A DNA stretch of 64,000 bases from a virus (IMGVR_UViG_3300024346_006511:32001-96000); one strand, 5' to 3'; positions 26,641-43,460 are shown, numbered from the stretch's first letter. The notes: generated from the letters alone by a model not told the origin. Made by a program: numbers and translations.

Positions 26641-29027
26641 TAATGTCCTTCTGACCAGTTATTAGCTATCTCTGGAGGTGCTTTTAAAGTTACTCCAGGT
26701 AGTTTAGTCGTATTCTCCATAATCTCTTGAACGTAAGGAGCAAACATTGCAGCATCTTTCTCAGCTACGTTAATTATCAATTGATCATGAACCTGTGCTT
26801 GACATACAGCATCGATACCTAGCTCTTTAGCTTTACGGTTGATAACAAGAGCAGCTCTATTTACTACTGCTGCTGCTAATGACTGCAATTGAAAGTTTAA
26901 ACAGTTGTTAAGTCCGTTACGGTAATCTCTATAGGCTTGAGTAACTTGATCTCTAGCAGATATCATTTTACCAGTCTTTGGATTAGTCTTAGTAGGTATC
27001 TGAGTTTCTAGTTGCTTTCTATATCTCCAGTCCATCATACGGTCCCCAACTTGCTCATAGATACGTTTAACTTTAGGTAAGTGACGTACACGTCCTACAT
27101 AGTTTTCTATCTTACCGTAAGCCTTAACCATTTCTCTTGATCTTTCTCTCCATGCTGCTAGTTCAGGAAAACCATCTAAGTAACCTTTTATAAGTCCTTC
27201 AGCAGTCTTTTGATCTACATCTAAAGTCATCTTAAGAGCATATGCTTCCATACCGTATGCAATACCTAATGAGTATGCTTTAGCTTTATTACGAGCAACT
27301 GGTTCTAACTTCTTAAGGTAGTTATCAGCTTTTTTATCAGCTGAGACTCCGTTAGGGAATCTATCTCTTTGATCGTTTAGCTTCTCAGTTTTTATAGCTA
27401 CAGTAGAATAGAAGTCCCATCCTTTATTAAAGATCTCTTGAAGAGCTTTATCTCCTGTAACACTAGCAAAGCAGTGAGGTTCTAGAGATTCGTAATCCGC
27501 ATCAATAACCTTTCTACCAGGTCCGGCAATTAAGAACTCTCTAACTATATTTACATACTTCATGATTACAGGAGCATCTTCTCCTTCTTCTAGGGGCTTC
27601 GGTAACTGTTGAGCATCAGAACCATATCGACCAGATACAGTACCATTTTGTTTAAAGTAGAAATAATATCTACCGTCTTCCTGACGGTCTCTAAACCTGT
27701 CTACGTAAGTAGATTTGATCTTAAGTAACTTATTATATATACGTAAATTCTCAGCCCAAGGGTACGTCTTTGCTAGCTCTTCTACCATAGACATATCAAA
27801 TTTATCTCTACCAGATTTAGTATTCGCTCCTGATACTTTAGGTTTAATACCCATGTATTTAAACACAATCTCACCTAAGTGTTTCTTAGACTGTATATTA
27901 AGGTATTCACCATCATTAGACTCTTTCCATAGCGACATAGATATTCTAGCTCTTTCTACTTCGTCGATTAACTCTAGATCACCGGTAAGTAAGAACTCCT
28001 TAATCTTAGAGTCTTCTAGTTCCTCTATATTCTTTTGAGTAAGAGAGTATTTACCAGTTTTCTCGCTTTTAGGTAAAGGAAGAGAGTAACGTTGTACTAG
28101 TCTCTGAGCGAAGTTACCTTTATGAGAAGGAGGGTAAGCATCTGTAGCAGTATCTACTATCCATGCTTTTACTTCTGATACTTCTAATAAAGATTTCATA
28201 ACAATCTCTTTATTCTTTGCTTGATCTTCTGTAATCTCTTTATGAATTCTATCAATCAGTTCTACATCTAAGTCTACTCCTTTCGCTTCCATAGGAACTG
28301 TTACCTCCCTATAGATTGGCATTACTTCGTCTTCGAAGAAGAACTTCTCCAAGCCTTCCTTTCGTAACTTATCCAAATATAAATTGCAAATACGAAGGGT
28401 GAGATCAGTATCAGCACTAGCATATCTGCTAAGAATGTCAAGATCTGCTTTATATATTTCGTATAACTCTTTTGTAACTGATCCTCCATTTTTTTTAATG
28501 CTTTCTTTTAGTATTACTTGTTCTTCGTTAGCAGCTTTTTCTACATCAAGCCCTAACTCCTTTTGGTTCATAATTGCAATAGACTTAAGCCCAAAGGGAT
28601 TACCAAAACCAAATGCACCTTCTTCGTACACAGTATGTACTAGAAGTCCTGTATCGACCCAAACATCGGGAAGTAAATCTACACCAAAGTAGTTCTTTAT
28701 AAACTGAACATCAAAGGAAGCATTGTGAAATACTAGTTTCTTACCTTTAAGAAGTTTAAGTAAATTTTTACTAATAACTTCAGTAGATTGATCGTTAATA
28801 GTCTGAAGTACTAATTCGTTTTTCTCATAGTCAAATACTAATGTAGGTAAGTAGAAACCTATACCTTCGTCACCAGATACTGACCAACCAATAATCTTAT
28901 TCTTACGAGGATTAAGACCGGTAGTTTCCGTATCGACTGCGATAACGTCTGAGTCTATAATATGTTGATGTAATAGTTTAAGAGTCTTTTCATCTTGGAC
29001 CGTGTAATACTTTTTTTCTAATTGCAT
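26640..29027 (-). CDS. polA: DNA polymerase family A with 3'-5' exonuclease
   Basis: DTETTG, HNASFD, TVSGR, DADYESLE, KAYSLGIAYG, QVHDQ. Confidence 0.95.
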   Translation of the reverse strand: MQLEKKYYTVQDEKTLKLLHQHIIDSDVIAVDTETTGLNPRKNKIIGWSVSGDEGIGFYLPTLVFDYEKNELVLQTINDQSTEVISKNLLKLLKGKKLVFHNASFDVQFIKNYFGVDLLPDVWVDTGLLVHTVYEEGAFGFGNPFGLKSIAIMNQKELGLDVEKAANEEQVILKESIKKNGGSVTKELYEIYKADLDILSRYASADTDLTLRICNLYLDKLRKEGLEKFFFEDEVMPIYREVTVPMEAKGVDLDVELIDRIHKEITEDQAKNKEIVMKSLLEVSEVKAWIVDTATDAYPPSHKGNFAQRLVQRYSLPLPKSEKTGKYSLTQKNIEELEDSKIKEFLLTGDLELIDEVERARISMSLWKESNDGEYLNIQSKKHLGEIVFKYMGIKPKVSGANTKSGRDKFDMSMVEELAKTYPWAENLRIYNKLLKIKSTYVDRFRDRQEDGRYYFYFKQNGTVSGRYGSDAQQLPKPLEEGEDAPVIMKYVNIVREFLIAGPGRKVIDADYESLEPHCFASVTGDKALQEIFNKGWDFYSTVAIKTEKLNDQRDRFPNGVSADKKADNYLKKLEPVARNKAKAYSLGIAYGMEAYALKMTLDVDQKTAEGLIKGYLDGFPELAAWRERSREMVKAYGKIENYVGRVRHLPKVKRIYEQVGDRMMDWRYRKQLETQIPTKTNPKTGKMISARDQVTQAYRDYRNGLNNCLNFQLQSLAAAVVNRAALVINRKAKELGIDAVCQAQVHDQLIINVAEKDAAMFAPYVQEIMENTTKLPGVTLKAPPEIANNWSEGH

Positions 29028-30114: not shown

Positions 30115-30374
30115 TAGTATTCCCCGTATAGGTCAAATTTCATTGGTTCTTTTTCTTCGATCTCAACTTCATGTGTTTTGATAGCATAGAGTTTACCCTC
30201 TAATGGAGCTAATCTATACTCACCTTTGAACTTAGTTGCTCTCATATACATCGTCAGTGCCATAACCAATCCTTCAACAACAGTTGATTGATCTCTTTCC
30301 AGAATCCAATTATCTCCGGGAGCTTTTCTCTTAGCAATTAGCTCTCTTTCTTCTTCGATTATAATATCAGCCAT
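30114..30374 (-). CDS. hypothetical protein
   Basis: ORF coupled within the operon. Confidence 0.75.
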   Translation of the reverse strand: MADIIIEEERELIAKRKAPGDNWILERDQSTVVEGLVMALTMYMRATKFKGEYRLAPLEGKLYAIKTHEVEIEEKEPMKFDLYGEY

Positions 30375-30375
30375 A

Positions 30376-31287
30376 TTACTGTCTTAAAGTTTTTTCTATT
30401 CTGTAATCAGTATTAGTGAAAAAATCAGGAATAAACCTTGAATGAGTAGCTCTAATAGGGTTAATATCTAATCCTCCTCTTCTAGTATATAAACAAGATA
30501 CCATTAAATCTTCTGGTTGATATGCATCTGTTAAATGTTTAAATACCATTTCACAAATCTCTTCATGGAAGTGACTTACAGTTCTATGAGATACAATATA
30601 CTTCGCTACTGATTCAGGAGAAGGAATATTCTTTCCTTTCATTCTAATAAAGACATCTCCCCAGTCTGGTTGATTAGTTACTCTACAATTAGATCTTAAT
30701 AGGTTAGATCTTAACTTTACTTCTTTAGCCTCTTCTGATACAGTTTCTATTTCTAATTGAGAAGCATCTGAAGAGAAAGCAGTGAAGTCTATTTGATCTA
30801 AATCTGCAATCTCAGCTAAATCTTGATAACCTTCAAAAGATAATGCTTTACCGTCTTCTGAATCTGTGTAAAAACTTACTGTTGTATCTGTTTCAAGTAA
30901 CTTATCTAAATCACTTTTTACCTTCTCTTCAATCTGTATAATACAATCCACAGAAGTAGCTCCTAATCTAGTCATATTAAAAGAATTTAAGTATAACTTA
31001 ATAGATTTAGATTCTACGTGATATTGAGAGTTTGAAGGACATACAATTTTTAACATTCCTGCAACAGGTAAGCCTTTATCTGTAATTGCTGATACTTCAT
31101 AACAGTTCCAAGTATCTACTCCTACAAAGTCCTTATCAGTTAATCCATAGCCTTCTCTATTCAAATAGCGAGGTACTTTAACTAATAGCTCTGGTGCGTA
31201 GGTATCTTTATACCCGTCTCCACCTACTTTTCCTAAATGTTTAGACGCAATGTCTACTACTTCTTGATAATTTTTAACTTCTGCCAT
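30376..31287 (-). CDS. queF: preQ0 reductase QueF (bimodular type)
   Basis: ESKSIKLYLNSF, SNCRVTNQPDWG, FHEE, YTRRGGLDINP; start re-placed to MAEVK. Confidence 0.93.
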   Translation of the reverse strand: MAEVKNYQEVVDIASKHLGKVGGDGYKDTYAPELLVKVPRYLNREGYGLTDKDFVGVDTWNCYEVSAITDKGLPVAGMLKIVCPSNSQYHVESKSIKLYLNSFNMTRLGATSVDCIIQIEEKVKSDLDKLLETDTTVSFYTDSEDGKALSFEGYQDLAEIADLDQIDFTAFSSDASQLEIETVSEEAKEVKLRSNLLRSNCRVTNQPDWGDVFIRMKGKNIPSPESVAKYIVSHRTVSHFHEEICEMVFKHLTDAYQPEDLMVSCLYTRRGGLDINPIRATHSRFIPDFFTNTDYRIEKTLRQ

Positions 31288-31288
31288 A

Positions 31289-31654
31289 TTAACCTTTAAA
31301 TAATTGTTTTTTACCACCCTCATAAACATAAGCGTGTCCGTTTTCTATTAATAAATCATTAAGAGATTTTTCTTCTCCTTTGATGAATATTTCTGCAAGT
31401 ACTCTACCGTACTTACCTTTACCGTAAGATTGTATTTCAAACTTACCATCATTCATCTCTAAATATTTTTTCGTAAAATCAGAAGCAAGAAGACCTTTAG
31501 CTTTTTCTTCTAAGTTTCTTGTTCTCTTTTCCCAGGTATCTACACCTTTAAATCTAAGTCTTGCTTTAACCCAAGTACTGAATCCTAAGTCGATCATAAC
31601 ATCTGCTGTGTCACCATCAACTACTCTTAATAATTTTGCTCCGTATCTAAACAT
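31289..31654 (-). CDS. thermonuclease (SNase-like)
   Basis: RVVDGDT, RFKGVDTWE, GKYGRVLA, NGHA. Confidence 0.9.
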   Translation of the reverse strand: MFRYGAKLLRVVDGDTADVMIDLGFSTWVKARLRFKGVDTWEKRTRNLEEKAKGLLASDFTKKYLEMNDGKFEIQSYGKGKYGRVLAEIFIKGEEKSLNDLLIENGHAYVYEGGKKQLFKG

Positions 31655-32168
31655 TTATAAAATCTAAAATTTGTTCTACCCTTTGCATAGGGGAACCAGT
31701 TATCGTCAAATAAGGTTGACGTACACCTTCAAGAACAGCTTTAAACTCACTATCTATTTCCTTTCTCCATTGTTCATCTACACTTCTAACTCCATCGTCT
31801 ACTGAATCGAATTCAATAGGGAAATAAACATAATGAGTATATTCGCTCTTTATTCTATTCCAAGTATCTTCTATATAATCGTTCGTATATGTAGTTACTC
31901 CTTTCATAAATCTAGAGTAAACTAAAACATCCATATAACATCTATCTAATACTAAGTTATAAGGTTGAAGTAAAGCTTCCAAATGAAAACTACTAATAGC
32001 TAATTGAGTAGCATCGGTACCTTTTTCATTAATAGGAAATCCGTAACTACCTACTGTTCTAGTAGATTCATTAACAAACTCATACTTAGGTAATTTATTT
32101 TTAAGTAATTCGTAAACAGTAGTCTTACCTGTACTACTTGCTCCTACTAATGCTATTCTTTTTATCAT
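31647..32168 (-). CDS. P-loop nucleotide kinase (AAA_28/NadR-like)
   Basis: GASSTGKTT, LDRCYMD, DDGVR. Confidence 0.85.
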   Translation of the reverse strand: MIKRIALVGASSTGKTTVYELLKNKLPKYEFVNESTRTVGSYGFPINEKGTDATQLAISSFHLEALLQPYNLVLDRCYMDVLVYSRFMKGVTTYTNDYIEDTWNRIKSEYTHYVYFPIEFDSVDDGVRSVDEQWRKEIDSEFKAVLEGVRQPYLTITGSPMQRVEQILDFINV

Positions 32169-32713
32169 AAAGCTTCTCTTAAAAAGTTACACCACATATA
32201 TAACCCTCTGTCTCTTAAGATACGAAATAAATCTTCAAGCTCCACCTGAAAAGTATTAAATCTTTCTTCCATTATAATTTTACCTTCATCTACTCCAGCG
32301 GTAACTCTATGCAGAACAGTTCCTGCTATAGGGTACTTACCTTCGTTAATACCTTCGAAAGCTCTAATCTGAGGATCTTTACCTTTAAGTTCAGGGTACT
32401 CAGTTATTAAACCTGGATGCCCGTTAATTATAATATATTTTTCACATATAGAAGGAGGCATTATTCTTAACCAACCATGTAGAGTTATTAATGCTTCCGG
32501 AAAGTATACTAATAAGTCTTCATACTCTTCTTCATCAGGTTTATTACTAAAGGTAAAGTAACCTTGTTTTTCAATCCTAGGGTCTATAGTTCTAAGATGC
32601 TCAGGTCTATCGTTTGTAATAATCCGATCTGGCCATCTACCTAACGATTCAGCTATATCAGCTATTTCAGCTCCAGTCTGACTAAAAAATGCTATCCAAG
32701 TCTTAGTTGCCAT
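32165..32713 (-). CDS. PurN-like formyltransferase (DpdN-like preQ1 formyltransferase)
   Basis: FFSQTG, LHGWLRI, INGHPG, HRVTAGVDEG; lies in the deazaguanine operon. Confidence 0.8.
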   Translation of the reverse strand: MATKTWIAFFSQTGAEIADIAESLGRWPDRIITNDRPEHLRTIDPRIEKQGYFTFSNKPDEEEYEDLLVYFPEALITLHGWLRIMPPSICEKYIIINGHPGLITEYPELKGKDPQIRAFEGINEGKYPIAGTVLHRVTAGVDEGKIIMEERFNTFQVELEDLFRILRDRGLYMWCNFLREAL

Positions 32714-33506
32714 TAGTATACCATTTAAATTTCTGAATATTATTTTTAATTGTGCCTAACTGAATATCATCAATCTCAGAATTAATCAGTTCATGAAGTT
32801 TCTGTCTTTCTTTAGACCATAACCCATCTGATCCATATGATATACCTTTAATACCGTGAACTACAGGATTAGAAGTATCAAGTGAATATATCCAATCATA
32901 ATCGGAATGCTTATAAAAACTAAATTCTTGAGGTAATCCACATCCTAGTAAGTGATGAGGTTTAGCTGTATTGATCACACCGTCTCTAAGTAAATCTCCC
33001 AGTAGCTTAACACGTCCTAGCATCCAGCTAACATACTTGTTAGCATGAGGAACTGATTGTGTATAATACGAGTAATCAAATGATATAGCTATCATATCTA
33101 CATCTGCTGTCTTGTTCATATAGTTGTAGCAATCTACAATTTCATCATATGTCCTACCTTGAACAACTCCTATTTTACCACTACCTTCGTAACCGTATCC
33201 TTTATTAATCCAGTCTTCCATCTGGTCGCAAGTTTTACCAGCGTCTTCTAAAGCATCTGGGACTATATACCAAGTTGGTTTAAGTTCGTTAACCCATTTA
33301 TTAAATTTATCTGCATCGAAAGCCTCTTCTAATTCAAATATAGAGTTATCTAAAATAATCTCCCTACCTTTTACTGCTGCCTTTTTAAACTGATCTAAGT
33401 ACCCTTTATCTTCTTCAAATAAATGTACTAACGCATAGTCGTAGTCAGTATATCTCTGTACCTCTTCGAATATTTCTTTAGGACTTTCGTGTGCTATCTT
33501 TATCAT
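32703..33506 (-). CDS. dpdA: TGT-fold 7-deazaguanine transglycosylase (DpdA-like)
   Basis: ILDNS, PD, GVVQG, HHLLG, SLDTSNP; que gene context. Confidence 0.75.
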   Translation of the reverse strand: MIKIAHESPKEIFEEVQRYTDYDYALVHLFEEDKGYLDQFKKAAVKGREIILDNSIFELEEAFDADKFNKWVNELKPTWYIVPDALEDAGKTCDQMEDWINKGYGYEGSGKIGVVQGRTYDEIVDCYNYMNKTADVDMIAISFDYSYYTQSVPHANKYVSWMLGRVKLLGDLLRDGVINTAKPHHLLGCGLPQEFSFYKHSDYDWIYSLDTSNPVVHGIKGISYGSDGLWSKERQKLHELINSEIDDIQLGTIKNNIQKFKWYTNGN

Positions 33507-33693
33507 CTATATTTGTAGTATTTAATAGTGTTGACATAGTTCTTACTGAGTTATCGATAAGTTCTAATGCATGGTCAAGTTTAGTTTGATTCTTATCATA
33601 TTCATAAATTTCAGAATATGCTTTCTTTACAATATCGAATGGTAAGTAATCCTCACCGTCAATTGTAACTTTATGTTTCTCTAAATTAATCAT
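33478..33693 (-). CDS. hypothetical protein
   Basis: ORF overlapping its neighbours. Confidence 0.65.
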   Translation of the reverse strand: MINLEKHKVTIDGEDYLPFDIVKKAYSEIYEYDKNQTKLDHALELIDNSVRTMSTLLNTTNIDDKDSTRKS

Positions 33694-34228
33694 TAAAGAA
33701 CTGTTTTAAGTCAGGTCTGAAGTAATTAATCGATTTCATTACTTTTCTATCTCTTGTTCTATAGACAATGTACCGTCCTTCCGCAATCTTCTCAAAATGA
33801 CAGGCCTCACCTTGTTCCTTACTTCTTTGGCTGACACTCTGTATGGCTTCTTCTTCAGTTTTACAAGCTTTTGACATATTAGAAGCCTGTACCTCTTGAT
33901 ATGCTGGCCATATCTTATCTTTAAGGCCATGTAACATAGTACCGTTCCCAAGGGAAACATAAGTAATGTCGCACAAAGCGTCCAGAACTTCCACAATGTC
34001 CCCTCTTTCGCAAGCTTCTCTATATTCTTCGAGTTCTTCGAGGATAAAGTCATAAACGAATTGCCACTCTTTTTTACTTGGTATAGTTGGTTCATAGTTA
34101 TTAGGTTTTCCGAATGTTTTATTAAACGTTTCTACTTCATCTACGAAAGGAACTCCGTTAACCCAAACTGGTAGTGGTTCCATGTCTTTCATCTCATTCT
34201 CTGAGAATAAATTTAATTGTTTACTCAT
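33686..34228 (-). CDS. MazG-like (PRA-PH) NTP pyrophosphohydrolase
   Basis: EELEEY...EVLDALCDITYV, EVQASNMSK, KVMKS. Confidence 0.88.
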   Translation of the reverse strand: MSKQLNLFSENEMKDMEPLPVWVNGVPFVDEVETFNKTFGKPNNYEPTIPSKKEWQFVYDFILEELEEYREACERGDIVEVLDALCDITYVSLGNGTMLHGLKDKIWPAYQEVQASNMSKACKTEEEAIQSVSQRSKEQGEACHFEKIAEGRYIVYRTRDRKVMKSINYFRPDLKQFFND

Positions 34229-34664
34229 CTTTATTTAATTTATTTGTATTCTCTATCGGCATTGTTAATCCTCCAATGTAATTACCATCGGCTAGATGGA
34301 AGTATGGATCGTCTTGTGCTCTATCGTAATCATCTTCTAATCTTATGATATCGTCTTCTCCAAAATAAGTACCAGTTTGAACTTCTATAAATTGTACTAC
34401 TTCGTCAGTTTTATTCCAAGCTCTATGTTTAGCTTCTAATGGAATATGTATAGAACCTCCTGTTTTAACTGTATAGATTTCATCATCCAATACAACAGTT
34501 AGGACTCCTTCAACAACTGTCCACTGCTCACGTCTATTAGTATGATACTGGTAAGAAAGTCTTTGTCCAGGAGCTACAGTTATTAGTTTAACTTTAGTAA
34601 AGTCAGTATCTAATAATACATCATAACAACCCCAAGGTCTTTCATCGTGTTCTAATGCTTGCAT
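34221..34664 (-). CDS. mannose-6-phosphate isomerase type II C-terminal cupin
   Basis: RPWG, LSYQYH..RREQW, IEVQTG.YFGEDDIIRLEDDY. Confidence 0.88.
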   Translation of the reverse strand: MQALEHDERPWGCYDVLLDTDFTKVKLITVAPGQRLSYQYHTNRREQWTVVEGVLTVVLDDEIYTVKTGGSIHIPLEAKHRAWNKTDEVVQFIEVQTGTYFGEDDIIRLEDDYDRAQDDPYFHLADGNYIGGLTMPIENTNKLNKDE

Positions 34665-35365
34665 ATGCTTGCTAATTCTATGTTCTTATAAAACTCTGCT
34701 TTTGCTGAATCCTCATTTAAAAATGCTCCTGTTAACTTAGCAGTCTGCATTGAAGCTCCTCCATGCTTTACTCCTCTACATGATACACATGCATGAGTTG
34801 CATTTACCTGAACTGCTACTCCTAAATTACCTTCACATATCTTATCTACTGCATTATGAATAGCTACCGTTAACTGCTCTTGAATAGCTCCTCTTCTACC
34901 GAATTGCTCTACAATTCTATTAAGCTTAGACAGTCCTACTACCTTACCATCTTCTGATGCTATATAAGCAATACTTACTGTACCTCTAATAGCTTGATGG
35001 TGGTGAGAACACATAGACGTTACTGGTATATTACTCTCCTGTACAATGCCGTCATATCCATCAGAAGGAAATGCTGTAATACGGTCTAAAGGGCTATATC
35101 TTCCAGCCCACAAGTCATTAACATAAGCTTTAGCTACTCTCATTGGAGTATCTGCAGAGTTAGGATCGTCTTTATAGTCACATCCTAATGCAGTTAAAAA
35201 GTTTGCATATGCTTCTGATGCTCTTTTTATAATAACTTGCTTTTCATGATCAGTAAGTCTAGCTTCTGGTCCTTCTGTCTTTTGTTTTTCCGCTAGTTGA
35301 GTTGAAATACCGTTAGCGAATCCGGCTCTTACTAATTCTGTTCCTTCTATAAACTTTTTAGGCAT
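34652..35365 (-). CDS. folE: GTP cyclohydrolase I
   Basis: TPMRVAK, SMCSHH, GLSKLNR, IQEQLT, HACVSCRGV. Confidence 0.95.
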   Translation of the reverse strand: MPKKFIEGTELVRAGFANGISTQLAEKQKTEGPEARLTDHEKQVIIKRASEAYANFLTALGCDYKDDPNSADTPMRVAKAYVNDLWAGRYSPLDRITAFPSDGYDGIVQESNIPVTSMCSHHHQAIRGTVSIAYIASEDGKVVGLSKLNRIVEQFGRRGAIQEQLTVAIHNAVDKICEGNLGVAVQVNATHACVSCRGVKHGGASMQTAKLTGAFLNEDSAKAEFYKNIELASICKH

Positions 35366-35374
35366 AATATATAA

Positions 35375-35403
35375 TTTGTTTTTACTGAGGTTCTACGACT
35401 CAT
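35375..35403 (-). promoter_or_regulatory. preQ1 class I riboswitch-like aptamer (folE leader)
   Basis: UGAG-UCGUAGAAC-CUCA-GU-AAAAACAAA between promoter and ATG. Confidence 0.75.
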
Positions 35404-35412
35404 TCTTAATTA

Positions 35413-35442
35413 AAGATAAGAAATTTATTTTAAACATCCAAA
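35413..35442 (-). promoter_or_regulatory. early/middle promoter motif
   Basis: TTTG-N18-CTTATCTT. Confidence 0.7.
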
Positions 35443-35834
35443 TAATCTTGAATAGTTTTGGAAGTTTCTTTTTCCCAAGGGTATACAATCCAACCGTAAT
35501 CATCAGGTATCTCTTTTGCGAAATATTCTGGTTTTGCTTTCGAGGATGTTTTGTAATGTAGAGTAGCAAACTTAGGATTAAACATTTCTTCTCTCCATTT
35601 TAATATTGTCTCTCCACTATCTGCTATATCATCTATAATTAACAGTCTAGGGTAGTGATTACTTTTATATTCAAAGTAAGGAATATCAAAACGATGTGAA
35701 TACATTATTGCTAAGATAGTACCTCCTCTAGGAATTCCTGTTACGTAATCTATTTTTCCTTTTGTTTGTGCGTGTATGTTATCGAGGAGTTTATAAACAT
35801 CCTCCCAACTATAATAAACTCTTTTTACTCCCAT
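35430..35834 (-). CDS. type I phosphoribosyltransferase (Gpt-like)
   Basis: GIPRGG, LIIDDIADSGET, WIVYPWE. Confidence 0.88.
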   Translation of the reverse strand: MGVKRVYYSWEDVYKLLDNIHAQTKGKIDYVTGIPRGGTILAIMYSHRFDIPYFEYKSNHYPRLLIIDDIADSGETILKWREEMFNPKFATLHYKTSSKAKPEYFAKEIPDDYGWIVYPWEKETSKTIQDYLDV

Positions 35835-35998
35835 GTATTATTCGTTACCCAGTTGCCAGTAGAATAGTTTGCTATAGAGGTATTACCTACTGATTGTAAT
35901 TTCTCTTTTAAATGGTCAAATTGAGCTGGAGTAATATTATAGTGGTGTACTCCTTCTATGAATCCTTTTAACCACTGTACAAATTCTTTTTCATTCAT
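35825..35998 (-). CDS. small hypothetical protein (57 aa; not in ORF track)
   Basis: [16 protein letters not shown]...NNTWE; overlaps both neighbours. Confidence 0.65.
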
Positions 35999-36299
35999 AA
36001 TCTAAACCGAAAAATTTATAGTTGTTAATAACTGCCTCTTTTTCTCCTGCTTCGATTGCTTCTTCTTCACTATCGAAAATTGCTTCTACAGGGCATTCCG
36101 GAACACAAGCTCCACAGTCGATACATTCTTCTGGGTTTATGTATAGGCTTTTACCGATTAAGTCTTCTTTGGACATTCCTGCTACTTCTGCTCCTGCTCC
36201 TGTAATATCTATAGGACCGTGAATACAGTCTACAGGGCAAACTGCTACACAGGCTGTATCGCAAGTACTAACGCAAGGTGATCCAATTATAAAACTCAT
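35991..36299 (-). CDS. dicluster Fe-S ferredoxin
   Basis: [17 protein letters not shown] and [12 protein letters not shown]. Confidence 0.92.
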
Positions 36300-37078
36300 T
36301 ATACTTCTCTTTGATCTTCAAACGCAATAATATGCGGTCTCCAGGTTAATCTATATCCATTATCTCTAACCCAATCAAACATGACTGGATAAGACTTTTG
36401 TAATGCTGCTCGAGTATCCCCAGCAGGCATAAACCATACTTTATCCTTAGGTGCATCCAATTGCTCTATACAGTCCATAATCTCTTCTAATGCTCCTTCG
36501 TCTTTCCCGTCCCATACAGGCTTTAAATGGTAGTCTGAATGGTATGCAATGCTTTCTTTTATAGCAGGGTAATTAAGTCTAAACTTATTATGCTGCTTTA
36601 TCATTTTCTCATCTGTAATCTTTCCTTCAGGAGTTTCGACACCGAGTACAGGTACCGAATTGCTGAACTTCGGACTGATTGAAAGTAGATTAATAGGATA
36701 ATCAGTAGGTAGAAAATGGCTACCTTCATTCTCCATAGTAATGAAGATATTTCTTTCATTTGCTAAATGTGTTAATTCGTTTACTAGTTTCTTATGCATA
36801 GAAGGACTTCCTCCTGTTAACATCATTTCTGATATATGAGGATTATCGTCATATGCTTTTATAATATCATTAAATGAGTATTTTCCTTTTTCTGGATGTA
36901 TAGAAGTATACCAGCTATCACACCATCCACCTTCTCCGAAATAACACCTATGAGTACAGCCAGTAGTCCTAATAACCACTGTAGGATAACCTGCTCTGGA
37001 TCCTTCTGATTGTACTGCCGTGTATATTTCAACGATCGGTAAGTTTTTATCGTAATCTTCTATTCTACCTAGGCTCAT
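36299..37078 (-). CDS. queE: 7-carboxy-7-deazaguanine synthase (radical SAM)
   Basis: [38 protein letters not shown]. Confidence 0.9.
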
Positions 37079-37535
37079 ATAATGCTGTGTTTTTACCGTG
37101 TTCTCTAAATTCAACTTTAGCTAGCTTTACCCTGCCGTCTGTCTCTTCTAACAAAAATGGATTAATTTTATTGTAGAGGTACTCTGCAAATTTCTCTGCT
37201 CCTACTGCTTCAATTACTCTTAGCTGAATAGTGCCGTTTCTATCTAATTTTTTGAAGTACCCGGCAAGTTGAGGATCATCTTCCGCAATTATAACCGTAT
37301 GATCAAACATATAGTCCATCCATGCTTTAGGAGACATTCCGTCTATCGTAGCTTTAGCTCTTTTCATGCCTCCAAAGTCCCATACCCAGTTCCTATCATC
37401 TAATTCTCCTTCAAACCATAGTTTAAAAGATACTCCGTACCCATGTAAGAATCTACAGTGAGTAGTTTCTGCTTTCCATTGTCTAAAACAAGTACTAAAC
37501 CCGTCAAAGACTTTTGTTGATTGAAATTTTCCCAT
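37065..37535 (-). CDS. queD: 6-carboxytetrahydropterin synthase
   Basis: HCRFLHGY, WVWDFG, FDH, GAE, EFREHGKN. Confidence 0.9.
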   Translation of the reverse strand: MGKFQSTKVFDGFSTCFRQWKAETTHCRFLHGYGVSFKLWFEGELDDRNWVWDFGGMKRAKATIDGMSPKAWMDYMFDHTVIIAEDDPQLAGYFKKLDRNGTIQLRVIEAVGAEKFAEYLYNKINPFLLEETDGRVKLAKVEFREHGKNTALYEPR

Positions 37536-37545
37536 AACTTATTTT

Positions 37546-37785
37546 TTAAACTAATTCTTCTATAATTCCTATTCCTTCACTTAATATAAGTAAACCTACT
37601 GCTAAATCTAAACTATAGCATAATGCAGCATAACCTAAAATACGGATAGCTGATTTAATAAATGAAATTGTTTGGTGTAATTTTGGATCTGGTACTTTCT
37701 GACCATTGATCTCAAGAGAGGCATTATTCTCTCTTTCTTCTCTATTATAGAGTTCTTGCATAACCTTTTTTTCTAATTTTTTCAT
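37546..37785 (-). CDS. small hypothetical membrane-associated protein
   Basis: HQTISFIKSAIRILGY...EGIGIIEELV; first gene of the queD operon. Confidence 0.75.
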   Translation of the reverse strand: MKKLEKKVMQELYNREERENNASLEINGQKVPDPKLHQTISFIKSAIRILGYAALCYSLDLAVGLLILSEGIGIIEELV

Positions 37786-37814
37786 AAGTGTTTTTAAAGT
37801 GGTACTACGACACT
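37786..37814 (-). promoter_or_regulatory. preQ1 class I riboswitch-like aptamer (leader of hyp-queD-queE operon)
   Basis: AGUG-UCGUAGUAC-CACU-UU-AAAAACAC directly before ATG. Confidence 0.75.
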
Positions 37815-37830
37815 ATAGTCATATATATAT

Positions 37831-37860
37831 AATATAAGAACTTTTTATTTCATAAGCAAC
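37831..37860 (-). promoter_or_regulatory. early/middle promoter motif
   Basis: GTTG-N18-CTTATATT. Confidence 0.7.
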
Positions 37861-37861
37861 T

Positions 37862-39157
37862 CTATAATGGTAAAGTTGAACCTGTAATTACTACTTTCCA
37901 GTTATTTCCGTCATAGAAAGCTAATGTACTTCCAGTTACTGCTAATGATCCGGTATTTACATTAGTCGGTAAAGTTGCACTAGGAGTTAAATTAAGTAAT
38001 GCTGAAGAGCTTACTACTGTCTCTAATGAATCTATTCTGCTTGATTCTATAGCAAAGGAACCTGTTATACTATTAATATTAGCATATCTAGCATCATAAG
38101 GAGTAAAGCCATATCTAGGATCACAGATACTAAATAACTGCACACTACTACTTATAATAATTTTTCCCTGTTTAGTTAAATACGTATTAGCTGCTGAGGA
38201 TGAAAAATTTGTTAATTCAACATCTGAGGTATAATCAGTCAATAAGCCGTCTACTGTACTTTGTATTGAACTAGTAAAGGTTTCTATACTTGTTAACCTT
38301 TCACCATGTAAATACCTCTGTAGTTCATGGTCTTGAAGAATAATATTGGCAGAACCCGTATAATTATTTAATGCAGTAATATCAGATTGCAAGGAAGAGC
38401 TTAAGACTGCAAAAGAACTACTTAATACATAATCTGTCTGTAATGATGCGCTTAATTCTGTAAAAGAACCACTATTAGCATATCTAGCATCATAAGGAGT
38501 AAAACCGTATCTAGGATCACATACCTCAAATAACTGTGCACTACTACTAAGAATAATTTTTCCTGCTTTAGACAAGTAGGTATTAGCTGCTGAAGATGAT
38601 AAATTTGTTAATTGTATATCAGATGCATATTCAGAGTCTAAGGAAGCAATTTGGCTAGCTAAAGAAGCTGAGGTAATTGAAAAAGCACCGGATATTGCAT
38701 TCTTATGTGCTAAAGAACTAGTTGATGCATTAAGAGCTTCTACTGCTGTTGTTAATTGAGCATCGGTTGCAAATGTAGCATCTAACGAAGCACTAAAGTC
38801 TAAAAGTTGAGCGGTTTCTAAAGAAAGAGATTGTGATACTATATCGAGCTGTTCATCTGTAGCGTATGTAGCATCTAAAGAACTAGAAAAGTTTTCTAAG
38901 CTAGTTACTCTAGAAGATACTGCAGTTACATCAACGTCTGTTGCATATATATCATCTATTGAAGAACTAAAAGAATTTAACCTGCTTAATGAAGCAGATA
39001 CATTGGTATGACCAATGATATTTAAAGACCCACTTATTGTTAAGTCTCCCATTGATCCGGAAATTACATTTCCTTTACCGTCTTGTAAGATTGCACCGTC
39101 TACCTGTACAAGTCGTTGGTAGGTTTGATTTATTCTCGTGTCCTTGAAATTCGCCAT
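37862..39157 (-). CDS. Ser-rich repetitive virion fibre-like protein
   Basis: SSLDATYATD-type repeats, SGS motifs, duplicated block; TATTTATA upstream. Confidence 0.7.
   Translation of the reverse strand: MANFKDTRINQTYQRLVQVDGAILQDGKGNVISGSMGDLTISGSLNIIGHTNVSASLSRLNSFSSSIDDIYATDVDVTAVSSRVTSLENFSSSLDATYATDEQLDIVSQSLSLETAQLLDFSASLDATFATDAQLTTAVEALNASTSSLAHKNAISGAFSITSASLASQIASLDSEYASDIQLTNLSSSAANTYLSKAGKIILSSSAQLFEVCDPRYGFTPYDARYANSGSFTELSASLQTDYVLSSSFAVLSSSLQSDITALNNYTGSANIILQDHELQRYLHGERLTSIETFTSSIQSTVDGLLTDYTSDVELTNFSSSAANTYLTKQGKIIISSSVQLFSICDPRYGFTPYDARYANINSITGSFAIESSRIDSLETVVSSSALLNLTPSATLPTNVNTGSLAVTGSTLAFYDGNNWKVVITGSTLPL
38078..38626. repeat. imperfect direct repeat (~150 bp, copies about 38078-38230 and 38474-38626)
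   Basis: Encodes SSSAANTYL.K.GKII.SSS.QLF..CDPRYGFTPYDARYAN twice. Confidence 0.85.
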
Positions 39158-39183
39158 AGTAAGAGTATATTATATAAATAGTA

Positions 39184-39300
39184 CTAGAAATTCTTATAAC
39201 TAAACGGATCCCTTTTTTTCAACTCCTTAATTTTCTTATTGTAGAGTTTATTCTTTTTATAGGTAGTATACCAGTTCTTTATGTAGTTGAATATTTTCAT
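39184..39300 (-). CDS. small basic protein (38 aa; not in ORF track)
   Basis: MKIFNYIKNW...KELKKRDPFSYKNF; ATGA-coupled to the carbamoyltransferase. Confidence 0.6.
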   Translation of the reverse strand: MKIFNYIKNWYTTYKKNKLYNKKIKELKKRDPFSYKNF

Positions 39301-40955
39301 TTTTTTAATACTAAATAATTTCCTAATACCAAGTAATCTATATCACTGTTGAGAAATCTTTTGATTGCTTGGTTAGGTGTTCTTGTTATTGTTTCGTCTT
39401 TTAAGTTAAAAGAGGTATTCAGTAGAACTCCATGTCCTGATAGTCTCTTAAAAGCATCTAACAATAAATAGTACCTTTCATTTTGTTTCTTACTAACAGA
39501 CTGTACTCTTGCTGTACCATCTATATGAGTAGCTGATGGAAATTTATTTAAAGAGCCATTCTTTACCTTTACTACCTGGTTCATATACGGTATTTTGTCT
39601 TTAGTAAGAAAGTATTTAGTTGTATCTTCTTCAATGACAGAAGGAGCGAAAGGTCTAAAACCTTCTCTTTTTTTAATTACTAAATTTAACTTTTCACGCA
39701 TTTTAGGGTTATAAGGTGAAGCTAAAATACTCCTATTACCTAATGCTCTAGCGCCAAATTCCATTCTATCTTGGAACCATGCTACTATCTTATCTGAGTA
39801 CAGTAATTTAGCAACTCTATTCATTAGTTTTTCTTCAGCAAATTCTATAAAATCTACTTTGTCTGAATTAGCTAAAATCTGGTCTAGATATTCCTCTTTT
39901 GTGTAACTATTACCTAAGTAAGGAGAAACATTATCTTTAATCGGGCCTCTGTAATTATTTAAACATGCTCCTATTGCAGAACCAGCATCAGAAGGGGCAA
40001 ATGGTATGTGTATATTATTATAGTGTTTATATGCTTTGTAATTAGCAACACCGTTATAAGCACATCCTCCTCCTAAACATAAATTATCGCTTTTACCTAT
40101 CAGTTTCATTTTATGTACAAACTCTAAGAAAAAATATTCATACACTGCTTGAATTGAAGCTGCTAAGTCCTTATGATCTTGAGTAACCTCTTCTTCTGGA
40201 AGTCTAGGTGATAGGTTTAAAAGTTTTGCAAGCTTAGAATTAAACATTATCTTATCTGTATATTCCCAAGTGTAAAACTTCTGGTTTACTTTAAAACCTG
40301 TTAACTCTATCGTGCTTTTAAGTAAATCAAAATATTTTCCAGGGTTACCATAAGGTGCTAATCCCATCACTTTATATTCCCCTTCATTAGGTTTAAACCC
40401 AAGAAATGCAGTCATAGTTGAATAAAACATACCTAGTGAATTTGGAAACTTATAAGAATGTTTTAATTTTAGTTCTTTTCCTTCACCTTTCCAGAAAGAT
40501 ACTGTTTGCCATTCTCCTACTCCGTCTACTACTAGTATATCTGCTGATTTATATGGGGAAGTAAAGAACGAAAAAGCAGCATGAGATTCATGATGAGGGG
40601 TATAGCTAATTTTACCCTTATACCCTAAATCAAAAAGTAACCTTTTAGGTTTATTTTTTGCGAACTCTTTTCTAAATCTTTTCTTAGTAAAAAAGGTACG
40701 TAATGGGTGTTTGCTAAATATCTTCTCTACCCTATCTCTTTTTAAAGCAGGATCTTCGTACCAGCATACTTCAGAAATATCATCTATACTAGTATTAGTG
40801 CTTTCTAAACAGTATTTAATAGCGTTTAAAGGAAACGAACTATCGTGCTTTAATTCAGTAAATCTTTCTTCTTCTGCTGCTGCTATTACTTTACCATTTT
40901 CAACTATACAAGCTGCAGAATCATGGTAAAATGCTGATATACCTAATTGTATCAT
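39297..40955 (-). CDS. carbamoyltransferase (NodU/CmcH family)
   Basis: YHDSAA, AAEEERF, HHESHA, DGVGE, EYKVMGLAPYG, EFGARALGNRSI, FRPFAP, LNTSFN. Confidence 0.95.
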   Translation of the reverse strand: MIQLGISAFYHDSAACIVENGKVIAAAEEERFTELKHDSSFPLNAIKYCLESTNTSIDDISEVCWYEDPALKRDRVEKIFSKHPLRTFFTKKRFRKEFAKNKPKRLLFDLGYKGKISYTPHHESHAAFSFFTSPYKSADILVVDGVGEWQTVSFWKGEGKELKLKHSYKFPNSLGMFYSTMTAFLGFKPNEGEYKVMGLAPYGNPGKYFDLLKSTIELTGFKVNQKFYTWEYTDKIMFNSKLAKLLNLSPRLPEEEVTQDHKDLAASIQAVYEYFFLEFVHKMKLIGKSDNLCLGGGCAYNGVANYKAYKHYNNIHIPFAPSDAGSAIGACLNNYRGPIKDNVSPYLGNSYTKEEYLDQILANSDKVDFIEFAEEKLMNRVAKLLYSDKIVAWFQDRMEFGARALGNRSILASPYNPKMREKLNLVIKKREGFRPFAPSVIEEDTTKYFLTKDKIPYMNQVVKVKNGSLNKFPSATHIDGTARVQSVSKKQNERYYLLLDAFKRLSGHGVLLNTSFNLKDETITRTPNQAIKRFLNSDIDYLVLGNYLVLKK

Positions 40956-41599
40956 ATTATGCTTCTATTGTTTGTGTCTTTTCTCAATCTATTATTAGGA
41001 TTAGTACGTTCTACGTAAAGTTTCTCATTAAATCCATTTATATCTCTTATTTCGCCAAGTTGTTTTAATCTTATTGAACTATAAGAACTGAACACATCTT
41101 CATACCAAGTAATATCAGTATTTAAATCTAACGATAAAAGTTCTATTTTAGTTTTTTCATTAACGTAAAAATTTATTTTAGCATCGATTTCTTCTTGAGA
41201 AACTTTATAATCAGAACTATACTGTGTCTGAAAATCATTCTTTCCGGATAGTTTAGATCTTTTTTGTGCTATAGCATAGCTCATTGCTTGTGCATTTACA
41301 TCTCTTCTGCTTAAAATTATAACGTGTTTAAACTGCTTTGCAAAATTAAGAAAATAGCTATAAGCATCAGTTGTCTCAGGGTATTGGTGAGTCATACATT
41401 TTACTACCAACTTATCGTCTTTTCCTATATTATCAAAATCTATATCTGAGTAATCTAAGTGAGGAGGAGATAGGAATAGAGGATGCTTAAAAATAGGATT
41501 TAAAGGTTCATGTACTCCTCTATACCCTATACATCTAGCTAAGGTAGTCAATAATGCTGTTGATCCTGATCTTGGATTTGTAATTATAAGTATACTCAT
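40952..41599 (-). CDS. sulfotransferase-like (Stf0-type)
   Basis: PRSGST, HEP, RRDVNAQAMS, YED. Confidence 0.75.
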   Translation of the reverse strand: MSILIITNPRSGSTALLTTLARCIGYRGVHEPLNPIFKHPLFLSPPHLDYSDIDFDNIGKDDKLVVKCMTHQYPETTDAYSYFLNFAKQFKHVIILSRRDVNAQAMSYAIAQKRSKLSGKNDFQTQYSSDYKVSQEEIDAKINFYVNEKTKIELLSLDLNTDITWYEDVFSSYSSIRLKQLGEIRDINGFNEKLYVERTNPNNRLRKDTNNRSII

Positions 41600-41615
41600 A
41601 CCTTATTATATATTG

Positions 41616-41689
41616 TGGAGAATATCGGAGTCGAACCGATGACCTCCTGCGTGCAAGGCAGGCGCTCTAGCCAGCTGAGCTAATCCCCC
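41616..41689 (-). tRNA. tRNA-Ala(UGC)
   Basis: GGGGGATTAGCTCAGCTGGCTAGAGCGCCTGCCTTGCACGCAGGAGGTCATCGGTTCGACTCCGATATTCTCCA; cloverleaf with G3:U70; no encoded CCA. Confidence 0.96.
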
Positions 41690-41695
41690 TACCTG

Positions 41696-41842
41696 CTAAA
41701 TAGTGCGGTTTCTTCTTACTCCGTCCCACTTAGCTTTCCTAGAATTACCCAGCATAGCGTATCTACTTATTCTCTGATTGACATTTGATCTTTCAGAATT
41801 TAACTGGGTATTCCCGTTAGTTGATTGGTCTCGATTATGCAT
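41696..41842 (-). CDS. small hypothetical protein (48 aa; not in ORF track)
   Basis: MHNRDQSTNGNTQLNSER...KWDGVRRNRTI; overlaps the queC stop and exactly fills the gap to the tRNA. Confidence 0.55.
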   Translation of the reverse strand: MHNRDQSTNGNTQLNSERSNVNQRISRYAMLGNSRKAKWDGVRRNRTI

Positions 41843-42653
41843 ATTCTGCTAGTAATTTTGCTACATGTGTTTTCGCAACTTCATAATCAACTGGTCCAGT
41901 TTCGTCTTCATATTGAACGGGATCATTAACACCCAAATCAATGAATGCTTCAATACGTTCAACTGATGAAGCGCTTTTGTAGTCAGAGTTTCCACTTGGA
42001 TATGGTTTGTACGAGGTATTCGTTCTTTTGTATACTTCGTTAAAATCCAATTCCAATTCTTTAATGAGTTTCTGTCCATCTTTTAAGATTCCTAGTTTAT
42101 CTGTATCTAAATAAGGAGTAAAATACCCTACTTTCTCAGCTTCCCAATTACCTAATCTAAAGGCATTATCGTCAGCATCTCTAAACTCTTGTCTACAGTC
42201 AGGATAGATTGCATGATCACCAGCATGAATTCCTAATGCGATATCTGTATCGTTACCATTAGATGTAGCTGCTGATAATGCTACTGCTTGTACTAAAGAA
42301 GCAAATATCTTGTTCCTATTAGGTACTACTGTAGCTTTCATGTTATCTTCTTCATAATGACCTTCCGGTACATCTTCTCCTCCTTCAGTTAGTGCTGAAT
42401 TTAGTAAGTTAACTAAACCGTCTAGTTTAATAACTTGATAGTTAATCTTGCAACCTCCGAAACATTCGTTATCAGAAGGGCAAGTCTCATTAATATAATT
42501 TACTAATGATTGTGCTCTTTCTAGCTCAACTCTATGCTTCTGACCGTAATCAAAAGATATAGCAGTTACTTGATCGTACTCTTTTAAACATCTGAGTAAT
42601 AATGTAGAGGAGTCCATCCCTCCGCTTAGACTTACAACAACATTTTTTGCCAT
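41835..42653 (-). CDS. queC: 7-cyano-7-deazaguanine synthase (Cys-less zinc-site variant)
   Basis: SLSGGMDS, FDYGQKH, TVVPNRN, HAGDHAIYPDCR. Confidence 0.92.
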   Translation of the reverse strand: MAKNVVVSLSGGMDSSTLLLRCLKEYDQVTAISFDYGQKHRVELERAQSLVNYINETCPSDNECFGGCKINYQVIKLDGLVNLLNSALTEGGEDVPEGHYEEDNMKATVVPNRNKIFASLVQAVALSAATSNGNDTDIALGIHAGDHAIYPDCRQEFRDADDNAFRLGNWEAEKVGYFTPYLDTDKLGILKDGQKLIKELELDFNEVYKRTNTSYKPYPSGNSDYKSASSVERIEAFIDLGVNDPVQYEDETGPVDYEVAKTHVAKLLAEYA

Positions 42654-42702
42654 CTTAATTATATTTAAAAATTGCCAGGTATTAAAAACGTATAGGCGAA
42701 CG

Positions 42703-43005
42703 TTATTCTAATATAGAAGATAAGGAATTTCCTATTGTCTTCCAACGGTCTGCATATTCTTTTAATGAATATACTTTTTTATTAGGGTCTCCATTAAGTA
42801 ATTCTCTTGCAACTGTTTTCAGTGCTGCTCCAAAATTACCTGGGTAAGAGACTGTCTTAATGTAAGGAGTATCGTTGTCTCCTTTAATAACTCTTTCATA
42901 AACTGTAAATCCACCACTAGCAGATTTAGAGATGAAAAATGGTTCCATAACAGGATCTTTTACGATCGTATCTGTAGAGGGTATTGAATCTGGTTTTCGT
43001 AACAT
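42703..43005 (-). CDS. hypothetical protein
   Basis: ORF in operon. Confidence 0.75.
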   Translation of the reverse strand: MLRKPDSIPSTDTIVKDPVMEPFFISKSASGGFTVYERVIKGDNDTPYIKTVSYPGNFGAALKTVARELLNGDPNKKVYSLKEYADRWKTIGNSLSSILE

Positions 43006-43006
43006 A

Positions 43007-43270
43007 TTAAAATAAAATTAATTCTTTAAGGTTTTGTGAAGTCTGAAGTCCTACATGTTTCGATGTATCTCCGTTTTCTTGAATAATGACTGTAGTAGGT
43101 ACAGATCTAACTTGATACTCAGCTGCTAAGCCTTTTGTATCACTATCAATATCTACTTCAATGTATTCTACTCCGTCTGTGATTTCTTCTTTGACCTTGT
43201 TCCATACCGGAGCGTAAGATCTACATGGTCCGCACCATGAAGCACTAAACTTAATTGCTTTTTTTGCCAT
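43007..43270 (-). CDS. trxA: thioredoxin
   Basis: FSASWCGPC, VRSVPT; start re-placed to MAKKA. Confidence 0.92.
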   Translation of the reverse strand: MAKKAIKFSASWCGPCRSYAPVWNKVKEEITDGVEYIEVDIDSDTKGLAAEYQVRSVPTTVIIQENGDTSKHVGLQTSQNLKELILF

Positions 43271-43409
43271 ATCTATTTTTCTTTTTGTAATGATCTGCTT
43301 TAGAAAATTTAGAAGTACGTTTACCTTCTTGTACAGGAGCACCTTTCTTAAAGGTTACTAACCATTCTTTTAATTGTGTAATTCTTTGCTTTGCGCTGTT
43401 TTTTGACAT
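43251..43409 (-). CDS. small basic protein (52 aa; not in ORF track)
   Basis: MSKNSAKQRITQLKEWL...RYGKKSN; directly after a promoter motif. Confidence 0.65.
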   Translation of the reverse strand: MSKNSAKQRITQLKEWLVTFKKGAPVQEGKRTSKFSKADHYKKKNRYGKKSN

Positions 43410-43429
43410 ATAACTATTTGTTTTATTAT

Positions 43430-43459: not shown

Positions 43460-43460
43460 T

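Follow-up and report, generated by a model that had tools for sequence, protein, structure and literature searches.

How does a phage come to carry a 7-deazaguanine derivative at every guanine position of its DNA: is the base exchanged in the replicated DNA, or is it exchanged in the nucleotide pool before the polymerase acts? This question is raised by a gene cluster in a stretch of 64,000 nucleotides (IMGVR_UViG_3300024346_006511:32001-96000; hereafter called the window), which is part of one virus record of 156,126 bp. The cluster spans positions 30376-42653, and all genes in the whole region lie on the minus strand. An earlier note on this DNA had claimed a complete pathway for formyl-preQ1, a 7-deazaguanine with a formylated aminomethyl group, with signs that deoxyguanosine (dG) is replaced before replication. 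The genes it listed, i.e., folE, queD, queE, queC, queF and genes for a DpdA-like protein, a PurN-like formyltransferase, a phosphoribosyltransferase (PRTase), a kinase and a MazG-like protein, were all found on this strand and within this span. Judged by orthology, the locus is very probably the formyl-preQ1 system based on DpdA3 and DpdN, carried by an immuto-like Flavobacteriia phage, and it is predicted to replace all dG of the virion DNA by formylated deoxy-preQ1 (fdPreQ1). The gene set is, therefore, a further example of an already described system. As to the mechanism, we tentatively favor a base swap on the pool of deoxyguanosine nucleotides before replication, not on finished DNA. The genes on which the argument is built are given here in the order of their transcription, with identities to the proteins of phage immuto_2-6A (hereafter immuto).

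41835..42653, minus strand: QueC, preQ0 synthase (Pfam QueC, E 4e-39; NCBIfam QueC, E 3e-38)
37065..37535, minus strand: QueD, 6-carboxytetrahydropterin synthase (Pfam PTPS, E 2e-13; 68% identity)
36299..37114, minus strand: QueE, radical-SAM 7-carboxy-7-deazaguanine (CDG) synthase (weak Radical_SAM and NCBIfam QueE matches; 81% identity)
35991..36299, minus strand: 4Fe-4S dicluster ferredoxin, directly after queE (Pfam Fer4 families)
35430..35834, minus strand: Gpt-like purine PRTase (Pfam Pribosyltran; NCBIfam xanthine PRTase, E 3e-10; 42% identity)
34652..35365, minus strand: FolE, GTP cyclohydrolase I, the first step of the pathway (Pfam GTP_cyclohydroI, E 2e-42; 76% identity)
33686..34228, minus strand: MazG-like nucleoside triphosphate pyrophosphohydrolase of the PRA-PH family (Pfam PRA-PH, E 1e-10; 79% identity to the immuto NTP pyrophosphohydrolase)
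32703..33506, minus strand: DpdA3, minimal transglycosylase of 267 amino acids (aa) with the fold of tRNA-guanine transglycosylase (TGT) (74% identity to immuto DpdA; AlphaFold model matches TGT)
32165..32713, minus strand: DpdN, PurN-like formyltransferase (Pfam Formyl_trans_N; 51% identity)
31647..32168, minus strand: P-loop kinase of the AAA_28 family (Pfam AAA_28, E 1e-18; 66% identity)
30376..31329, minus strand: QueF, two-domain NADPH-dependent preQ0 reductase, which makes preQ1 (Pfam QueF_N, E 1e-27, and QueF, E 6e-17; NCBIfam QueF, E 9e-71; 63% identity)
26640..29027, minus strand: PolA, family A DNA polymerase with a 3'-5' exonuclease domain, encoded immediately downstream of the cluster (Pfam DNA_pol_A, E 5e-52; DNA_pol_A_exo1, E 4e-11)

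All five enzymes (FolE, QueD, QueE, QueC, QueF) are recognized by Pfam or NCBIfam, and four of them are 63-81% identical to the immuto proteins, which bears out the complete preQ1 gene set claimed earlier. The block next to PolA is syntenic gene for gene with that of immuto_2-6A (QueF, kinase, DpdN, DpdA3, MazG, FolE, PRTase, QueE, and QueD; 42-81% identity), with PolA at the same position in immuto, and the same block is present in the same order in ~35 IMG/VR contigs. The DNA of immuto was reported to contain 345,000 fdPreQ1 per million nucleotides and to show no dG peak (Cui, Hutinet et al., PMC10516641). Since the genes in the window are orthologous to and syntenic with those of a phage whose DNA was measured to be fully substituted, fdPreQ1 is predicted here as well, and the earlier proposal of a DpdN-type formyl-preQ1 pathway is well supported. 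In the same study, the PurN paralog was named DpdN, and the transglycosylase was assigned to DpdA3, the subfamily that occurs in each of the three phage groups in which guanine is completely replaced (PMC10516641). The words phosphoribosyltransferase and kinase do not occur in that paper, and no paper explaining the PRTase or the kinase in DpdA3 clusters was found in the literature searched.

The closest relative of DpdN among the solved structures in the PDB is PurN (E 6e-13). The PurN-type catalytic residues, i.e., N97 and H99 in an N-x-H motif and D142, are invariant in 13 homologs, and an N-terminal S-Q-T-G-x-E loop occupies the position of the phosphate-binding loop of PurN. DpdN is predicted to convert preQ1 into formyl-preQ1.

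The identity of DpdA3 to immuto DpdA is 74%, and its identities to the homologs in phages CP220 and phiST are 42% and 26%, respectively. DpdA3 has no match in Pfam or NCBIfam or among PDB sequences, and a 16-sequence profile did not retrieve a TGT from the PDB sequences either; for this reason, its fold was established by modeling. The AlphaFold model, which was built on the 16-sequence alignment (pLDDT 89, pTM 0.88), is a TIM barrel that matches TGT (Foldseek E 8e-9; VIA Z 18.7, root-mean-square deviation 2.9 Å over 234 residues). Three aspartates, D53, D84, and D210, are invariant in the 16 sequences and are located at strand ends in the model. Together with the identity to the immuto protein, the modeled fold confirms the presence of the TGT-fold DpdA-like gene reported in the earlier note. 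In the DpdA family and in TGTs of known structure, a structural zinc site and an insertion pinned by the zinc are conserved (PMC10164549). DpdA3 has the TIM-barrel fold in common with TGTs and bacterial DpdA, and its three invariant aspartates may correspond to the catalytic ones of TGT, but it is ~100 to 130 residues shorter and lacks both the CxCx2Cx22H zinc site and the insertion; it contains three cysteines in total, of which C126 is the sole invariant one. Overall charge did not discriminate as a test for DNA binding, as DpdA3 has an isoelectric point (pI) of 5.0 and a conventional phage DpdA is likewise acidic. Published attempts to obtain DNA modification in E. coli with DpdA3 and the pathway genes were unsuccessful (PMC10516641). 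A passage in the same paper places the nucleoside of 7-amido-7-deazaguanine (ADG) in the cytoplasm of CP220-infected cells (PMC10516641).

The kinase gene overlaps its neighbors at both its start and its stop. The AF2 model of the protein has a pLDDT of 95.6, and the top Foldseek matches are deoxyadenosine, deoxyguanosine and deoxycytidine kinases, deoxynucleoside kinase (dNK) and thymidylate kinase (TMPK), with E ~1e-7 and TMq ~0.7. The Walker A motif G-x4-GKT and the pair D75-R76 are conserved in the family. The associations of this kinase and of the other genes discussed below were drawn from gene neighborhoods, mostly in related marine phages and in two distant lineages, and several of the contigs are fragments. 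CP220 is a T4-like phage that is not related to immuto; its DpdA3 (gp056) is encoded between an HD-domain and P-loop protein (gp055) and a homolog of the kinase (gp057; 27% identity, E 4e-13). Two natural fusions were found among the 150 best representatives of the kinase family. One of them, P0184 (487 aa; positions 180-1643 of L088, a 3.8-kb metagenome contig), connects the kinase to QueF, and the next gene, which overlaps it, encodes a DpdA3 homolog (47% identity, hhalign E 4e-65). The other, P0217 (329 aa), connects the kinase to a dUTPase. The long kinase homologs P0153 and P0260 contain no DpdA3 domain, and when a word-indexed database was searched for the kinase or the PRTase in longer proteins, as expected of fusions, there were none. 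A 170-aa open reading frame (ORF) that lies upstream of DpdA3 in a second DpdA3 group is not detectable as a kinase.

The translation of the MazG-like gene contains the E-x-x-E ... D metal motif, and a phmmer search against the PDB retrieved no relative. Every immuto-like contig has a close homolog inside the block; three of them show the gene shifted to the opposite side of the kinase, but still within the block. In the second DpdA3 group, the order is DpdA3-QueC-...-QueD-QueE-FolE-PRT-MazG-PolB, and in phiST a MazG-like gene is found between FolE and DpdL/DpdA3. Three lineages have a hydrolase of deoxynucleoside triphosphates (dNTPs) as a neighbor of DpdA3: it is MazG in the phage studied here and in immuto, a MazG-like protein in phiST, and an HD-domain plus P-loop protein in CP220. 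A phage MazG with a preference for dGTP and dCTP is on record (PMC6850273). On one contig of the second DpdA3 group (L058, 11072-14327), PRT and MazG are directly followed by a family B polymerase that is apparently encoded in two separate ORFs, and a cupin gene lies between the two.

The best PDB matches of the PRTase are Sulfolobus GpT-1/2 and E. coli xanthine-guanine phosphoribosyltransferase (XGPRT). Its PRGG motif (the pyrophosphate loop), its DD..D motif (the acidic motif for phosphoribosyl pyrophosphate, PRPP) and its C-terminal aromatic, purine-stacking WIVYPWE motif are invariant in 32 sequences. Homologs occur in 26 of 50,697 phage records, namely in the immuto, phiST and CP220 groups and a few others; these three are exactly the groups with complete replacement. 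At IMG/VR loci with a homolog of the PRTase (27-99% identity), FolE, QueD, QueE or QueC is encoded within 10 kb in 60 of 63 cases, and the PRTase gene often directly follows that of FolE or QueE. As a control, 80 cellular loci with homologs of 26-43% identity, from candidate-phyla bacteria, DPANN archaea, Actinomarina and Sphingomonadales, were inspected. A que gene was nearby in three of them, at least one of which resembles phage DNA. The contrast between 60 of 63 viral and 3 of 80 cellular loci indicates that the association of the PRTase with que genes is specific to viruses. A fusion of the PRTase domain to FolE occurs in Stenotrophomonas phage Bhz54, in a cluster with the order QueE-QueC-QueD-[PRT-FolE]-DpdA-clamp-PolA. 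In CP220, the PRTase gene is located ~110 kb from the DpdA3-kinase pair. The WIVYPWE motif in the pocket is unchanged across phages that make 7-deazaguanine (DG), ADG or preQ1-type bases, and it is common to the cellular salvage homologs. Because of the association and fusion with FolE, the large distance in CP220 and the invariant pocket motif known from salvage enzymes, recycling of guanine appears to fit the PRTase better than loading of the base preQ1. The conserved neighborhood, the FolE fusion and the cellular control support its assignment to the system, as proposed earlier, but the loading role that was assigned to it fits less well.

A contig of a Lachnospiraceae metagenome-assembled genome (L092) also has a homolog of the PRTase (43% identity), beside FolE, QueE, QueC and a DpdA-like gene of the conventional kind. 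The contig was binned as bacterial, and the locus may represent either a prophage or a Dpd-like island of a bacterium.

The CP220 and phiST systems, whose final products are the deoxynucleosides of ADG (dADG) and DG (dDG), respectively, have several components in common with the one in the window. Both encode DpdA3 homologs, a PRTase of the same family and a dNTP hydrolase adjacent to DpdA3, and in CP220 a homolog of the kinase directly follows DpdA3. They differ in their final base and in the absence of QueF and DpdN; furthermore, the PRTase gene is distant in CP220, and an orthologous kinase is absent from phiST.

How could these components work together? Established queuosine biochemistry accounts for the first part of the pathway, in which FolE, QueD, QueE (with the ferredoxin), QueC and QueF would convert GTP into the free base preQ1. 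In the mechanism that we tentatively prefer, MazG would cleave dGTP to dGMP, which would both clear dGTP and supply the acceptor. DpdA3 would then swap guanine for preQ1 on a free deoxynucleotide or deoxynucleoside, DpdN would formylate the aminomethyl group, and the dNK/TMPK-fold kinase would re-phosphorylate the product. NDP kinase of the host would complete the triphosphate, and the adjacent PolA would incorporate it. The PRTase would recycle the expelled guanine via GMP to GTP for use by FolE, without any role in loading the new base. The gene order MazG, DpdA3, DpdN, kinase in the window is the same as the proposed order of the reactions.

If this mechanism holds, its logic parallels that of phages with 2-aminoadenine (dZ) genomes, in which PurZ, MazZ and DatZ take part: in both cases, a dNTP hydrolase of the MazG or HD type is encoded next to the enzyme for the replacement purine nucleotide, with a dedicated polymerase nearby. 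The window differs in that it contains no homolog of PurZ, and the base would be made free and attached by exchange.

The lean towards a swap at the nucleotide level is narrow. It is based on the dNK-type kinase that tracks DpdA3 and QueF, on the recurrence of dNTP hydrolases of different folds beside DpdA3, on the loss of the zinc-pinned insertion from DpdA3, and on the published failure in E. coli and the ADG nucleoside in infected cells. The PurN-type catalytic residues of DpdN and its counterpart of the phosphate-binding loop, the retention of MazG in the block and the recorded phage MazG that prefers dGTP and dCTP also count in its favor. Several observations weigh against it. To our knowledge, every characterized TGT or DpdA acts on a polynucleotide, and we know of none that acts on a mononucleotide. 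Complete modification after replication is possible in principle, as exemplified by the glucosylation of T4 DNA. Many phages with ordinary DNA also have MazG-like genes, and members of the kinase family are present in 89 Streptomyces phage records; in Jay2Jay, the one that was inspected, the gene is located in the replication module without a que gene nearby. The kinase profile finds no orthologue in the complete genome of phiST, where the neighbor of DpdA3 is a small protein of 159 aa with a weak Walker-A match, and no match in four fragmentary contigs of the second DpdA3 group. In addition, the authors of the immuto work concluded that the base is inserted post-replicatively (PMC10516641). 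The earlier claim of dG replacement before replication is partly supported: the ties of PRTase, kinase and MazG to que and DpdA3 genes are backed by the data, but the PRTase appears less likely to be the loader. The assignment of the kinase to the system is favored by its position in CP220 and its fusion to QueF and is weakened by its occurrence in Streptomyces phages without que genes and its absence from phiST, whilst that of MazG is favored by its retention in the DpdA3 block despite shuffling and is weakened by its frequency in unmodified phages. Slightly more doubtful than the mechanism itself is the broader claim to which it leads, i.e., that DpdA3 does not modify DNA but is the first transglycosylase of the TGT family to act on free deoxyguanosine nucleotides, and that the complete 7-deazaguanine genomes of immuto, phiST and CP220 are all built before replication.

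The published model explains most of the same data and is rated only slightly lower than the nucleotide-level swap, i.e., as nearly as likely. According to this model, DpdA3 would be a very efficient DNA transglycosylase that exchanges every guanine for preQ1 in replicated DNA, and DpdN would formylate the base in the DNA; the PRTase and the kinase would form a guanine-to-GDP salvage loop that returns guanine to FolE, and MazG and the nuclease encoded in the cluster would have housekeeping functions. The TGT fold of DpdA3 with its three invariant aspartates is consistent with this model, as all known members of the family act on nucleic acid, and so are the Gpt-like nature of the PRTase with its linkage or fusion to FolE, the presence of kinase and MazG homologs in phages without que genes, and the conclusion of the immuto authors themselves (PMC10516641). 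The salvage loop is more difficult to reconcile with the kinase, whose fold resembles that of deoxynucleoside and thymidylate kinases and not that of guanylate kinase, and whose gene accompanies those of DpdA3 and QueF instead of the PRTase gene, which is ~110 kb away in CP220. Moreover, the hosts already possess an essential GMP kinase. Also weighing against the model are the lack in DpdA3 of the zinc site and the insertions of its DNA- and tRNA-acting relatives and the recurrence of dNTP hydrolases of different folds beside it; in addition, the model assumes an activity on DNA that was never demonstrated (PMC10516641). An unlikely third explanation retains the loading role that the earlier note gave to the PRTase: it would load CDG, preQ0 or preQ1 onto PRPP, the later steps would take place on the ribonucleotide, the kinase would yield the diphosphate, the ribonucleotide reductase (RNR) of the phage would reduce it, and PolA would incorporate it, with DpdA3 patching residual guanines. 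The precedent is TubE of tubercidin biosynthesis, an experimentally demonstrated CDG-specific PRPP transferase (PMC6112128). By gene context, TubE is similar to the phage enzyme, since it also is a purine-type PRTase within a FolE/QueD/QueE set; the phage PRTase differs in its co-occurrence with a transglycosylase and in its fusion to FolE in Bhz54. This explanation agrees with the position of the PRTase gene as the last one of the queD-queE-ferredoxin unit here and behind CDG-forming genes in other lineages, with its proximity to RNR in phiST, with the near confinement of the viral PRTase to que clusters, and with the use of ribonucleotides as substrates by PurN-type enzymes. However, DpdA3, the sole universal signature gene, would become nearly redundant, and a pool of 7-deaza ribonucleotides would presumably also enter RNA. 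The WIVYPWE motif, invariant across phages with different 7-substituents and common to cellular salvage homologs, also weighs against this explanation, and so does the fusion to FolE, which suggests a place for the PRTase where the pathway is supplied with GTP.

Apart from the components that enter the proposed mechanism, the region contains the following features.

45740-46717 and 44014-45729, minus strand: small and large subunits, respectively, of class I RNR (Pfam Ribonuc_red_sm, E 4e-63; Ribonuc_red_lgC, E 3e-99)
42703..43342, minus strand: thioredoxin (Pfam Thioredoxin, E 6e-18) and a 100-aa ORF, upstream of queC
41615..41689, minus strand: tRNA-Ala (UGC) (ARAGORN; Rfam tRNA, 66.8 bits)
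37862..41599, minus strand: cargo block of three genes between queC and queD
40952-41599, minus strand: Stf0-like sulfotransferase (weak Pfam Sulphotransf match), in the cargo block
39297-40955, minus strand: NodU/TobZ-type carbamoyltransferase of 552 aa (Pfam Carbam_trans_N, E 2e-59; Carbam_trans_C, E 8e-65), in the cargo block
37862-39157, minus strand: very acidic ORF of 431 aa (pI 4.3), in the cargo block
37789..37810, minus strand: leader motif copy 2 (22-nt pattern), upstream of the 79-aa ORF and the queD operon
37546..37785, minus strand: 79-aa ORF heading the queD operon
35377..35398, minus strand: leader motif copy 1 (22-nt pattern), upstream of folE
34221..34664, minus strand: cupin of the mannose-6-phosphate isomerase C-terminal type (Pfam MannoseP_isomer, E 4e-29), between MazG and FolE
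33478..33693, minus strand: 71-aa ORF between MazG and DpdA3
31289..31654, minus strand: staphylococcal-nuclease (SNase)-like protein (Pfam SNase, E 1e-10)

The order of transcription is RNR small subunit, RNR large subunit, thioredoxin, 100-aa ORF, QueC, tRNA-Ala, sulfotransferase-like protein, carbamoyltransferase, 431-aa ORF, 79-aa ORF, QueD, QueE, ferredoxin, PRTase, FolE, cupin, MazG-like protein, 71-aa ORF, DpdA3, DpdN, kinase, SNase-like protein, and QueF, followed by three small ORFs and then PolA (29027-26640). Overlaps of a few bases are common between the genes, for example in DpdA3/DpdN/kinase and also in MazG/cupin/FolE. The Pfam matches flanking the cluster corroborate that the phage has its own PolA and RNR, as stated earlier. 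In addition to the full PolA, the window contains a second, short gene resembling that of a family A polymerase (441 aa; 52060-53385, minus strand); its Pfam DNA_pol_A match is weak (E 5e-8) and does not reach the curated cut-off. The order thioredoxin, 100-aa ORF, QueC is kept in relatives.

Within the span of the cluster, the SNase-like nuclease, the cupin, the ferredoxin, the 431-aa ORF, the carbamoyltransferase, the sulfotransferase-like gene and the tRNA-Ala had not been listed earlier. The SNase-like gene, the cupin, the ferredoxin and the cargo block, all present in the phage studied here, are absent from immuto_2-6A. The SNase-like protein occurs in a subset of the relatives; many of those in IMG/VR have a copy with 79-92% identity in the corresponding position. 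The cupin is found in many, but not all, relatives, and several viral lineages, among them the second DpdA3 group (47-73% identity), likewise have it close to que genes. The ferredoxin gene is kept after queE in a subset of the relatives, and its product could plausibly serve as a dedicated reductant of the radical-SAM enzyme QueE. The 71-aa ORF is located at the same place in four mapped relatives (L008, L009, L030, and L086), and the 79-aa ORF is located upstream of queD in relatives too; neither of them has a match to a Pfam or PHROG family.

The two leader motifs fit the pattern TCGTAG.ACC....TAAAAACA and are near-identical; the pattern has just these two occurrences in the window, against 0.07 expected by chance. 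By eye, they resemble small hairpins of the preQ1-I type. Rfam cmscan searches of positions 29000-44000 (E <= 1) and 35340-37880 (E <= 10) did not find a preQ1 riboswitch, and the motifs are, therefore, recorded as a repeated motif only.

The content of the interval between queC and queD varies among the relatives. Some relatives have the carbamoyltransferase, the sulfotransferase-like gene and the 431-aa ORF on their contigs, whilst others, and also immuto, lack them; the three genes were, therefore, treated as variable cargo and not as part of the DNA pathway. For the same reasons, the possibility that the carbamoyltransferase is a further DNA-modifying enzyme, which would yield carbamoyl-preQ1, was set aside. 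Its gene and the Stf0-like gene overlap by 4 nt, and this pairing recalls the sugar decoration of the Nod-factor type. Homologs of the 431-aa protein (40-71% identity) are encoded at the same place in some relatives; searches for a Pfam or PHROG family or a usable lead in the ESM Atlas gave none.

DpdA3, whose activity on DNA was never demonstrated, is used by all phages with 100% 7-deazaguanine DNA. Both in the phage studied here and in others not related to it, its gene is accompanied by those for a kinase of the deoxynucleotide type, a hydrolase of dNTPs and a purine PRTase, a combination for which the literature searched offers no explanation. If these genomes are indeed built before replication, this would contradict the current published model, and a transglycosylase that makes modified deoxynucleotides would be a useful enzyme. 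DpdA3 acting on free nucleotides, a hydrolase that removes dGTP, a kinase dedicated to the product and a PRTase that recycles guanine would then make up the third way in nature, besides those based on dZ and deoxyinosine, in which a purine of the genome is fully substituted.

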